NCBI GenBank assembly: GCA_045659785.1
Contig: JAZRCM010000002.1
Coordinates: forward strand, 68,196 to 132,195
Source of the DNA: Alphaproteobacteria bacterium
GTDB lineage: Bacteria; Pseudomonadota; Alphaproteobacteria; RF32; CAG-239
Reading direction: 5' to 3'
Length of the DNA: 64,000 bases
A program made the translations under genes and the position numbers. The notes beneath the pieces are model-generated. The model ran no database searches, was not told the origin of the DNA, and saw nothing but the letters and a program-made list of their open reading frames with translations. Below are positions 32,189 to 34,134 of this stretch, one piece after another (position 1 is the stretch's first letter; each line of letters opens with the position of its first letter).

Positions 32189-32785
32189 ATGGAAAAAAAG
32201 TTTAATATAACAGAGGTTGTTTGCACTCGCATAAGTCACGATTTAATCGGAAATATCGGAGCCTTCGCCAATGCTTTGGAACTGATGGAAGACGATGATA
32301 TTGATTTTATGGAAGAAATCAAATCTACTCTCAATTTTAGCTCTACCGTTCTGATGTCAAGACTAAAATTTTTCCGTATGGTTTTTGGTCTGAATAATGC
32401 CAATTTGGAAAATGCAAATATGGTAAACAATATCAGTCAAAATTATGTTAAATCGTTAAATCCTCATCATCCGATAGAGATAGATATATCTCCGATTGAT
32501 GGGCAATCGGACTTAAATCGAGTTATCATGTTGGCTGTTATGCTTTGCGGAGATATAATTGTTAAAGGCGGAAAAATCACGATTAAAACAGATAGCCAAC
32601 AAATAACAACAAATGTTACAAGCCTGTTTCCTTTGGCTCAAAACAAAATCATTGAGATAAACAACATTATAAAAGGCATATATCCGGAAAATTTATCACA
32701 ATATGCTCCATTGTTCTATTTACAAGAAATGGGGGCAACATTACGAACAGAGGAAAATAACGACTTTACCCTGTATATTGGTTAA
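32189..32785 (+). CDS. chpT: histidine phosphotransferase ChpT (CckA-ChpT-CtrA phosphorelay)
   Basis: 198 aa. TRISHDLIGNIGAFANALELMED aligns with Caulobacter ChpT ARLCHDFISPASAIVSGLDLLED. LKFFRMVFG aligns with LQFTRVAFG. Degenerate CA-like C-terminal half. Confidence 0.75.
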   Translation: MEKKFNITEVVCTRISHDLIGNIGAFANALELMEDDDIDFMEEIKSTLNFSSTVLMSRLKFFRMVFGLNNANLENANMVNNISQNYVKSLNPHHPIEIDISPIDGQSDLNRVIMLAVMLCGDIIVKGGKITIKTDSQQITTNVTSLFPLAQNKIIEINNIIKGIYPENLSQYAPLFYLQEMGATLRTEENNDFTLYIG

Positions 32786-33989
32786 TATGACCAATATAAG
32801 TTTTTAAAAAATCTTGCTCTTGGCTATTGTTTAAGGCACTTCTTTGTGTGGTGTTTTGCTGCGCTGGTTCGACCGGAGTATGTGCTGTTTCTTCCGAATG
32901 ACCGGCACTCAATTTTGCCCGCATTGTGCTCATTTTATCACGAGGTGTAACTTTTTCACCGACTTGTTTTTTTACGAACTCTATACTTTCCATATATGCC
33001 TGAACATCAGCTGCTGATTTTCCTTGCAAATATTCATCTTTTCTTCTCTCCATAGCCTCTAGCAATAATTTAGGAAAGCTATGTTCATTTATCCCCACAA
33101 TATGTTCGTTTCCTTGCGATGACTGATACAAAAAATCCGCAGGTCTTAACAATATTTCTGCTTCCGCAGATGATTCATCTCGTCTTAATCCGGGAATATT
33201 ATCTAAGCTTAACACATGAGTCCCTTTAGGAATATGAATTACATAGACATTATCAGGCGAGAAGAACTCCGCCTCTTTTTTACTCAATGATGTTGATATA
33301 AAAGATGAATGTTCCGTTTCGTAACTTTTACTGCCGCGATAAACAACTAAATCATGTTCCAAAGGAGGATTATCTTCAAATGCTTTATCCATTAATAACA
33401 GTTTTCTGCAAAACTCGGGGGTTATTTTTTCACTTCCTCTGGTACGTAACTCACCTTTTCCCATAAAAGAATTTATAAATTCATATCCTTCCGCTTTATA
33501 ATATTCAAGCATCTCAAATTGTTCCGGAGAAACATGGGAATTAATTTTATCTTTATAAATGTTACTTGCTATATATCCGTCCATTGAAAGCGGATCTATT
33601 TTCAAAGCAGCTTCATCTATCGATAATTTCTTTGCCGAAGTAACTCCATCGGAAAATTCAATATTGTCATAATTAATCAAAGGAACGGTTTCATTTCCGA
33701 CAATAATTTCTTGTTGTTCTGAAGATGTTATGGCATACCCGCGATAAGCTTCAATATTACAAGCAATTAAACCTAGTTGTTCTGATAGCTCAATATTAGG
33801 ATTTAATTCAATACAGCACTTTTGCTTTGTTTCTGTTGACGATAAGTATAAAAATTGTTTTCCGTCTTTTTCATATAGAGTACTTATCCCGTCATAATGT
33901 TCTTGAAAATCTTTAAAACCGGGGCGAAAGATTCTGCGTTCTCTGGCAGAAAGCTGATAGCATTCGGTATTTTGAGATTCATTTTCCAT
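32766..33989 (-). CDS. ADP-ribosyltransferase toxin/effector (C3/VIP2/ExoS R-S-E class)
   Basis: 407 aa from ATG 33989 (GTG 34001 possible). Residue numbers count from GTG 34001. YYKAEGYEFINSF helix, LVVYRG (R222), FISTSL (S236-T-S238), SAEAEILL (E280-x-E282). ART core spans about 33117-33524. Confidence 0.8.
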   Translation of the reverse strand: MENESQNTECYQLSARERRIFRPGFKDFQEHYDGISTLYEKDGKQFLYLSSTETKQKCCIELNPNIELSEQLGLIACNIEAYRGYAITSSEQQEIIVGNETVPLINYDNIEFSDGVTSAKKLSIDEAALKIDPLSMDGYIASNIYKDKINSHVSPEQFEMLEYYKAEGYEFINSFMGKGELRTRGSEKITPEFCRKLLLMDKAFEDNPPLEHDLVVYRGSKSYETEHSSFISTSLSKKEAEFFSPDNVYVIHIPKGTHVLSLDNIPGLRRDESSAEAEILLRPADFLYQSSQGNEHIVGINEHSFPKLLLEAMERRKDEYLQGKSAADVQAYMESIEFVKKQVGEKVTPRDKMSTMRAKLSAGHSEETAHTPVEPAQQNTTQRSALNNSQEQDFLKTYIGHINQYTG

Positions 33990-34134
33990 TATTTTTCTCA
34001 CAGATTAATTTATGGGTTATATTGTATCTTAAAATGACAAATAATTCAAGATATTTTTTGTCAAAATATCGTCCACTAAAAATAAAACAAAAAGCCCCGA
34101 AAAAGATTTCGGGGCCTTATTATATTCGCTATGA

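Follow-up and report, generated by a model that had tools for sequence, protein, structure and literature searches.

A 64,000-nucleotide stretch of an alphaproteobacterial contig, referred to as the window in its whole length (GenBank assembly GCA_045659785.1, contig JAZRCM010000002.1, positions 68,196 to 132,195 of the forward strand), was analyzed with respect to one minus-strand gene predicted to encode an ADP-ribosyltransferase (ART). Almost certainly this gene encodes an intact ART-fold enzyme of the C3/VIP2 clade. Sequence profiles, motifs and the modelled fold establish its membership in the superfamily of C3/VIP2-type ARTs with an R-S-E triad, and catalytic activity is predicted. The protein is soluble and of cytoplasmic type, and it consists of three modules: a private N-terminal domain (N-domain), a compact ART core and a helical module. 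It belongs to the PF03496 superfamily, yet it fits none of the characterized architectures with which it was compared. Tentatively, we regard it as an intracellular, self-regulated conflict effector that is derived from a mobile element and is fixed here in the chromosome.

Identification of a C3/VIP2-type catalytic core

The protein matched the Pfam family PF03496 (ADPrib_exo_Tox) with 45.3 bits (E 8.4e-12), above the gathering score of 23.4, and its relatives scored 27-50 bits on the same model. A search of PDB sequences with the single ART protein sequence gave no match. With a profile of 15 family members, Vip2 (8e-7) and SpvB (5e-5) were recovered, as well as ART2.2, VsdC and ExoT; the ExoS/ExoT match (E 0.41) was weaker than that to VIP2 or SpvB. 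A profile of the catalytic domain (A5) detected Vip2 (2.5e-8), SpvB (1e-5), Lmo0066 (4.3e-5), BECa, Certhrax, Vis and C3larvin.

An AlphaFold (AF2) model built from 49 sequences had a mean predicted local distance difference test score (pLDDT) of 89.1 and a predicted template-modelling score (pTM) of 0.80; a run with 5 sequences (pLDDT 42.6) was unusable and was set aside. When the model was compared with the PDB by Foldseek, CDTa, iota Ia, VIP2, BECa and C2-I were found at E 1.5e-9 to 1e-7, and C3bot, Vis and Certhrax at about 1e-6 (template-modelling (TM) scores 0.50-0.57 normalised on C3, about 205 columns). The Foldseek probability to CDTa, Ia, VIP2, C2-I and C3 was 1.0. Among viral models (BFVD), ART domains of phages and giant viruses were matched, including MuF-ART and minor-capsid fusions. 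Thus two of the checks proposed in an earlier note on this DNA, which had been made from the sequence alone, namely a Pfam search and an AlphaFold model compared by Foldseek, both returned ART matches, and its assignment to the C3/VIP2/ExoS superfamily (PF03496) with a complete R-STS-ExE triad is borne out by the profiles and the confident structure model alike.

The core and its motifs were located as follows (residues numbered from the ATG at 33989):

33084..33542, minus strand: compact ART catalytic domain, residues 150-302 (profile A5 against the PDB; Foldseek)
33465..33503, minus strand: YYKAEGYEFINSF helix, residues 163-175 (hidden Markov model (HMM) alignment; Y164, Y169 and N173 invariant or nearly so)
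33336..33338, minus strand: codon (CGC) of the catalytic Arg218 in LVVYRG (sequence; invariant in 15 and 17 family members)
33288..33296, minus strand: Ser232-Thr233-Ser234, the STS motif (S232 invariant, S234 at least 90% conserved; 14 residues past R218)
33156..33164, minus strand: Glu276-Ala-Glu278, the ExE motif at the end of the ADP-ribosylating turn-turn (ARTT) loop (in 17/17 members; aligns with the ExE of Vip2 and SpvB)

The motifs LVVYRG, FISTSL, SAEAEILL and YYKAEGYEFINSF are all present as they had been described, a result well outside what chance would give. In HMM alignments YRG, STS and ExE-ILL were paired with the equivalent motifs of Vip2 and SpvB, and the segment YYxxEGYEFINSF (YYKAEGYEFINSF) fell on the 'LDGYARQDYKEINDYL' helix of VIP2 and the 'LRYYSAQGYSVINKYL' helix of SpvB, in agreement with the Y-x3-Y-x2-IN helix that had been proposed ahead of the arginine motif. 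Across the 17 family members examined, which are between 98% and about 20% identical to the window protein, R, S-[TS]-[ST] and ExE are retained without exception, and this argues against a pseudoenzyme. The aromatic residue of the ARTT loop is not conserved in the alphaproteobacterial clade.

The spacing of only 14 residues between Arg and STS that had been pointed out as unusual is real and is a family trait: alphaproteobacterial members have 14 residues, those of the main Clostridial clade 17-18 and those of a remote clade 20-22, compared with 30 in the aligned SpvB and 37 in VIP2. In the model a loop takes the place of the usual helix between the Arg and STS strands. Since the core aligns almost gaplessly to Lmo0066, the short link is not unique to this family.

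In ARTs the arginine and the STS motif hold NAD+, and an ExE motif, as in iota toxin, VIP2, SpvB and ExoS, predicts mono-ADP-ribosylation of protein arginine. By analogy with this chemistry, R218 and S232-T-S234 would hold NAD+, the catalytic glutamate E278 would activate the ribosyl-nicotinamide bond, and E276 would direct one ADP-ribose onto an arginine of a protein target. The closest solved relatives modify proteins, not nucleic acids.

Modules flanking the core

On both sides of the core, the model and the family alignments delimit further regions:

33594..33959, minus strand: N-terminal alpha/beta domain, family-specific, residues 11-132, about 125 amino acids (pLDDT 86-97; conserved in the family)
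Residues 133-149: linker (model and family alignments)
32955..33083, minus strand: helical module after the ART core, residues 303-345, FPxLLLxALERRKEEYL... (helices 305-343 with pLDDT 88-97; conserved family-wide)
32769..32954, minus strand: variable C-terminal tail, residues 346-407, partly disordered, with a short terminal helix (pLDDT 43-69)

The earlier note had described both flanks as matching no recognizable domain. This stands for the N-domain, for which neither Pfam nor PDB profile searches gave a match. It does not stand in so far as both flanks contain conserved modules specific to the family, namely the N-domain and the 'RRKEEYL' helical module. In an exhaustive HMMER search of 1.84 billion representatives the N-domain was found solely together with this ART family. 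The pTM of 0.80 was taken to imply a defined packing of the domains in the model. The C-terminal tail is the most divergent part in comparison with relative P0002 (21% substituted), and at its place other relatives carry extensions of 300-500 amino acids.

A degenerate ART duplicate, as it is found in binary toxins, was considered as the origin of the N-domain and was not adopted. The comparison of the N-domain profile with the ART profile by hhalign gave a probability of 0.1%, and PDB profiles lent no support. Foldseek was ambiguous: it aligned the model to Ia, CDTa and VIP2 over about 350 columns, with a root-mean-square deviation (rmsd) of 17-19 Å and no gain in TM score over matches to C3 only, and because of these two values a VIP2-like degenerate N-domain is held to be unproven.

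The maximal 19-residue Kyte-Doolittle mean was 0.62 for the whole protein and -0.5 for the hydrophilic N-terminus, and no hydrophobic segment was found. Judged by hydropathy, the protein therefore has no membrane anchor and, as had been noted before, no signal peptide.

Start codon, transcription and neighboring genes

A longer open reading frame (ORF; 32766..34001, minus strand) exists, whose sequence agrees with the transcription of the earlier reader and whose GTG at 34001 had been taken as the start. The orthologous loci L001 and L007 have GCG in place of this codon. Orthologous loci do keep the ATG at 33989, the GAGAAAAATA element ahead of it with a Shine-Dalgarno-like GAGA, and the TTGAAT-17-TACAAT promoter, and database homologs begin at MENESQ. 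We therefore moved the start to ATG 33989, which gives a protein of 407 amino acids and shifts the earlier residue numbers by -4 (Arg222 to R218, Ser236-238 to S232-T-S234, Glu280/282 to E276/E278).

The elements of the locus are:

32766..33989, minus strand: ART coding sequence, 407 amino acids, ATG at 33989, stop codon 32766..32768 (ORF listing, PF03496, conservation of the start, ratio of non-synonymous to synonymous substitution rates (dN/dS))
34021..34049, minus strand: predicted sigma-70 promoter of the ART gene, TTGAAT, 17 nt, TACAAT (promoter scan; conserved in L001, L007 and L014; consensus match only)
34091..34118, minus strand: intrinsic terminator of the upstream gene cspA, insulating the ART gene (12-pair stem and T-run)
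32189..32785, plus strand: chpT-like gene, convergent, its last 20 nt overlapping the ART 3' end (NCBIfam ChpT models; functional link to the ART not shown)

Because cspA ends in this strong terminator, the ART gene is very probably transcribed alone; together with its own predicted promoter this upholds the view of a monocistronic gene. The convergent overlap of 20 nt that had been described is also real (32766..32785) and is kept in L001 at 11205..11224. The ORF 32189..32785 matched NCBIfam ChpT models at E 1.6e-13 with 50.6 bits, against a curated cut-off of 225. Its assignment as chpT is plausible, and if it encodes ChpT, the sequence is a very divergent one. On the same strand an ORF of 447 amino acids (30842..32185; 414 amino acids in L001) stops 4 nt before the chpT-like gene, with which it is probably co-transcribed; it contains a long acidic low-complexity region and has no Pfam or PHROG match. 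The GC content of the ART gene equals that of its surroundings in this low-GC host (about 36%).

Distribution of the family and selection on the gene

The family is rare. A set of 5.8 billion clustered proteins yielded only four matches, and exhaustive HMMER and profile searches recovered about 15 relatives (or clusters) of full length. They are labelled 'hypothetical protein' in public records, and a literature search found nothing on this ART family or on the biology of Lmo0066. All members come from gut metagenomes (roe deer, ruminant, human), and their hosts are low-GC gut Alphaproteobacteria and gut Clostridia, a patchy distribution across two phyla. The Clostridial hosts were inferred from neighboring sporulation, ComG and MurT/GatD genes; two of the Clostridial loci sit among sporulation genes.

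The nearest genome is the metagenome-assembled genome 'Alphaproteobacteria bacterium RGIG4207' from roe-deer colon, whose ART is 87% identical and lies in the same synteny (GatCA, SDR, BrkB, giant ORF, ProRS, small ORF, CspA, ART, chpT-like, 414-aa ORF, TrmFO). A further ART copy is 97-98% identical to the window protein. In comparison with the L001 ortholog, dN/dS of the ART gene was 0.097 at dS 0.70, which is looser than for ProRS or CspA (0.01-0.02) and about equal to ComEC. The ART core and the helical module had the fewest substitutions (9%), the linker and the tail the most (21-24%). As judged from these sequence comparisons, the gene is under purifying selection and its function is maintained.

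Long alphaproteobacterium-like forms of 942 and 952 amino acids lie on two contigs and are 55-65% identical to the window protein in the shared core. The window has no counterpart of their conserved extensions at the N- and C-terminus, nor were split genes for them found there, and it holds no extra or degenerate copies of the ART or the N-domain. The window copy is thus the minimal form, in a conserved housekeeping neighborhood. The closest long relative, P0057 (952 amino acids, 65% identical), is the last gene of a locus (L009 1..12859) in which it follows a lambda-like tail module; ahead of it lie Gp53-like, DUF1833, NlpC/P60 and GpJ tail genes, an HU gene and a small serine recombinase. 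This gene order suggests a moron or accessory-gene slot at the end of a prophage.

In other genomes the neighborhoods are unrelated to that of the window, and most loci have no conserved neighbor. The Clostridial copy of L008 has insertion sequence fragments on its flanks and, close by, an OLD/AriA/AbiL-like ATPase-nuclease, and the copy of L016 lies between an integrase fragment together with a SoFic/PDC-S04-like Fic protein on one side and a gene of about 150 amino acids on the other. This Fic-like protein (L016 662..1912, 416 amino acids, directly upstream of the ART) carries the variant motif QPYEDGNKRTA and matches SoFic and PDC-S04 of PADLOC. Other Clostridial copies lie in ordinary chromosome.

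A phage origin of the family was rejected: no relatives were found among IMG/VR viral contigs, INPHARED sequenced phages or PLSDB plasmids, Alt-like matches to PHROGs were weak, and P0057 alone is prophage-like.

Partner genes

No macro or ADP-ribosylhydrolase (ARH) gene and no small partner gene on the same strand was found in the window or the syntenic loci, and no cognate immunity gene lies immediately downstream in the window, L001, L007, L009, L014 or L019. The gene had been called an orphan, and this now extends to every alphaproteobacterial locus.

A candidate partner was found in Clostridia only. Long Clostridial forms of the ART (641-872 amino acids) are always followed, 9-39 nt downstream, by an ORF of about 150 amino acids, which is 35-78% identical between loci and co-diverges with them. 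Genes of the wider family to which this ORF belongs were noted at these positions:

L003 5491..5952; L008 9029..9463; L010 12659..13111; L016 4244..4693; L020-L029: genes of about 150 amino acids

A counterpart is absent from the window and from all alphaproteobacterial, short Clostridial and remote-clade loci. Moreover, this uncharacterized family has more than 2000 clusters in gut Firmicutes, mostly without an ART. In the other loci examined the gene adjoins integrases and DUF1016 nucleases at mobile-element junctions and is followed by a gene of 306-312 amino acids, with no ART. The 306-aa version of this following gene has a weak PD-T4-6-like match, the 312-aa version none.

The ORF was rejected as a dedicated immunity protein, given its absence from the alphaproteobacterial and short forms and its many ART-free clusters, and for this reason the orphan state is the normal one in this ART family. 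The missing immunity fits a non-self target and an autoinhibited intracellular enzyme equally well.

Gene content of the window and secretion

Thirty-five ORFs of the window were scanned against Pfam; ComEC, TrmFO and GatCA were assigned by synteny with L001 instead. The content is of housekeeping type, with AcrAB-TetR, radical SAM, Dus, TrkA, HflX, haemolysin-III, Mur ligase, trigger factor and RF3, as well as a DJ-1/PfpI-family protein, a ParA/Mrp-type (NUBPL) ATPase, HflK/C-like SPFH proteins, DegP, HolC and an M15 peptidase. Among the scanned ORFs no genes of type I, III, IV or VI secretion systems, no mobile elements and no gene for a protective-antigen (PA)-like B component were found, and the latter was absent from all related loci as well.

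The earlier note had preferred a host-directed secreted effector. With no export signal, no B or translocation component and no secretion genes in the 64-kb window, nothing positive speaks for host-directed export or targeting of the window ART. Furthermore, Gram-positive Clostridia and Gram-negative Alphaproteobacteria share one architecture without a signal, which would hardly be expected if there were a dedicated secretion route.

Several large ORFs were noted on the way. An ORFan of 1624 amino acids (36536..41410, minus strand) has no Pfam match, contains DPVDPII-type proline/aspartate repeats and hydrophobic stretches, and has an L001 ortholog of 1511 amino acids (83% identical) with dN/dS 0.15, the highest of 12 neighboring genes. 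Further large ORFs without a significant Pfam family are 7412..11395 (plus strand, 1327 amino acids, only sub-threshold DUF948 and ATG17-like coiled-coil matches), 46836..49253 (plus strand, 805 amino acids) and 59944..61518 (minus strand, 524 amino acids). The host genome seems to be rich in big lineage-specific proteins. Local GC was 0.285 at 24001..26000, against about 0.36 in the rest of the window. The trigger-factor ORF (21063..22550, minus strand) as listed overlaps tRNA-Leu (22423..22507, minus strand); since Trigger_N begins at residue 55, its real start lies further downstream.

Comparison with characterized ADP-ribosyltransferases

The A components of binary toxins (VIP2, iota Ia, CDTa, C2-I, BECa) gave the best profile and Foldseek matches to the window ART. 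They share with it R/STS/ExE, the Y-x3-Y-x2-IN helix, a PKG(T/S) strand, the ExE-ILL strand and a two-domain organization of about 400 amino acids. Binary A components carry a signal peptide in most members, act with a B partner and contain a second, degenerate ART fold as their N-terminal adaptor domain. The window ART, in contrast, has neither a signal peptide (hydropathy) nor an adjacent PA-like B gene, its N-domain of about 125 amino acids has no profile likeness to the ART fold, its loop between R and STS is shorter by about 20 residues, and behind the core it carries a conserved helical module.

The ExE core of SpvB, which is of the arginine type, matches at E 1e-5, with 'LRYYSAQGYSVINKYL' of SpvB aligned to 'LEYYKAEGYEFINSF' of the window protein, and SpvB is not known to have an immunity gene. 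SpvB is delivered by the type III secretion system (T3SS) of SPI-2 and carries a TcaC-like N-domain. In the window neither such a domain nor T3SS genes are present, and the R-to-STS spacing is 14 compared with 30. C3bot, C3larvin, Vis and Certhrax have the single compact ART fold in common with the window protein (Foldseek TM 0.5-0.57; profile matches). C3 is a single-domain protein with a signal peptide and an asparagine-specific QxE motif, whereas the window protein carries ExE and two additional conserved modules and lacks a signal peptide. ExoS and ExoT combine a RhoGAP N-domain with a 14-3-3-binding (LDLA) box and depend on a T3SS; in the window protein no RhoGAP Pfam match and no LDLA-like 14-3-3 motif were found, nor T3SS genes in the window.

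Lmo0066 of Listeria (PDB 8za7_B, 180 amino acids) aligns with profile positions 20-156 over its residues 38-173 (E 4.3e-5). Unlike the window ART, it lacks an N-domain and a helical module. Bxa of Bacteroides stercoris is likewise an ART of a gut commensal with a prophage link (here seen in relative P0057) and an N-terminal non-catalytic domain ahead of a C-terminal ART domain. Its N-domain is a MuF domain shared with other warheads, and it requires a pair of immunity proteins encoded next to it, Bsi and the hydrolase BAH (PMC11699363). The window ART differs in having a private N-domain instead of MuF and no immunity or hydrolase gene.

CmdT of CmdTAC (PMC11618068) and DarT are cytoplasmic, signal-less ART toxins of phage conflict, and some relatives of the window ART have mobile-element or defence-type neighbors. 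CmdTAC and DarT act on nucleic acids and are paired with an antitoxin, chaperone or hydrolase, whereas the window ART is partnerless and nearest to ARTs acting on protein arginine. PADLOC gave no match to DarTG, CmdTAC or ParST, and no macro or ARH antitoxin is adjacent.

Possible function of the enzyme

In the interpretation that we tentatively prefer, the ART would act inside bacterial cells and not as an exported toxin. The N-domain and the helical module may keep the core inactive or confer target selectivity; since they always accompany the core and would restrain or target it, we propose that no separate immunity protein is needed. Once triggered, the enzyme would be unleashed on a bacterial or phage target, and the family would serve defence against, or exclusion of, phages or mobile elements. 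The window copy would be its minimal form, fixed in the chromosome of a gut alphaproteobacterial lineage. This intracellular, self-controlled mode of action is favoured because the protein is signal-less in both Gram types, its modules are inseparable, it is mostly partnerless and its surroundings include mobile elements.

A more specific version is a single-polypeptide abortive-infection or exclusion system, in which the N-domain as gate or sensor and the helical module as clamp restrain the VIP2-like core until a phage or mobile element acts as trigger, and which would have passed between Clostridia and Alphaproteobacteria of the gut and been domesticated here. The family would then be a new class of ADP-ribosylating effector, self-contained and free of immunity genes. 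We consider this version unlikely. An ART acting as anti-phage effector has a precedent in CmdTAC (PMC11618068).

A number of observations weigh against the conflict interpretation. The window locus is ordinary housekeeping chromosome, syntenic in two diverged genomes, and not a defence island. Defence-type neighbors were found in only 2-3 of about 11 distinct loci, which is guilt by association, and the viral, phage and plasmid collections that were searched held no relatives. The closest characterized relatives all act on eukaryotic proteins, and autoinhibition by the N-domain is pure inference. PADLOC gave no match for the window protein, P0004, P0005, P0016, P0056 or P0057, and a known defence system was rejected on this ground.

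The explanation that competes most seriously is a toxin directed at the host or at protists, which would be released by lysis, a holin or another secretion route and would ADP-ribosylate a eukaryotic arginine, for example in actin. The best matches (VIP2, SpvB, iota Ia, CDTa, C2-I, C3) modify actin or Rho, and the ExE motif is that of arginine-specific toxins; this likeness, however, reflects which ARTs were crystallised, and the alphaproteobacterial clade does not conserve the aromatic residue of the ARTT loop. C2-I, which lacks a signal peptide, is released at sporulation, and this would fit the two Clostridial loci among sporulation genes. The genome also encodes several giant ORFan proteins, as is often the case in host-associated bacteria, and all family members come from the gut. 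Against this, no signal peptide, translocation or receptor-binding domain, B component or secretion system was found in the window, and the same N-terminus in Gram-positive and Gram-negative hosts argues against dedicated secretion. An immunity, ARH or macro gene, found at none of the alphaproteobacterial loci, would be needless if the target were absent from bacteria. There is also a gut precedent, since the prophage-encoded ART Bxa acts on epithelial cells; yet Bxa, a promiscuous ART acting on eukaryotes, still needs immunity proteins (PMC11699363). Altogether we regard a host-directed toxin as rather unlikely, and the intracellular conflict enzyme is weakly favoured over it.

It is quite improbable that the ART is an endogenous regulator, which would modify one self protein as a housekeeping or stress switch, with the chpT-like gene and cspA as possible hints to its role. 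Such a function would agree with the stable site between these two genes, the gene's own predicted sigma-70-type promoter, the conserved 20-nt convergent overlap, purifying selection like that on neighbors such as ComEC, and the missing immunity gene. No ADP-ribosylhydrolase or macro gene for the reversal of the switch lies nearby, however, and the family is very rare, patchy and elsewhere associated with mobile elements, unlike a core regulator, with unrelated neighborhoods in other genomes.

An interbacterial polymorphic toxin, delivered by a type VI or type VII secretion system, by contact-dependent inhibition or in phage particles (MuF-type), is very improbable, and the earlier note had also thought it less likely. 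Many PF03496 domains are C-terminal warheads, the BFVD matches include MuF-ART and minor-capsid fusions, and a gene tightly linked to the long Clostridial forms on their downstream side diverges along with them. But Pfam and PHROG searches detected no MuF, LXG, Rhs, PAAR or other trafficking domain, the exhaustive HMMER search never found the N-domain joined to another toxin domain, no cognate immunity gene exists in the window or at the alphaproteobacterial loci, and the more than 2000 clusters of the downstream gene's family are mostly free of ARTs. Hardly credible, finally, is an inactive remnant in which the short R-to-STS loop and the lost helix abolish NAD binding: between the Arg and STS strands some 16-23 residues are missing that are helical in VIP2 and SpvB, and the window copy is without the extensions seen in its closest long relatives, but the catalytic residues are invariant in members only about 20-30% identical to it, the core is the most constrained part at a dN/dS of 0.10, and this compact core is confidently modelled and aligns with few gaps to the solved 180-aa ART chain of Lmo0066 (PDB 8za7_B).

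Implications

ART toxins are major enzymes of virulence and conflict, and those that have been characterized come almost all from pathogens and have a delivery device or an immunity partner. The gene described here defines a rare subfamily with a minimal core, a private N-domain and no partner, in uncultured gut anaerobes across phyla. For specialists this is a well-supported annotation and a testable lead and not a startling one. If the enzyme is active, it raises the question of how a cell tolerates an intact ExE ART without immunity, for which autoinhibition, extreme target specificity or a non-self target are the options. If active, it would also represent a new ADP-ribosylating activity in the gut ecosystem, aimed at the host, protists or phages.

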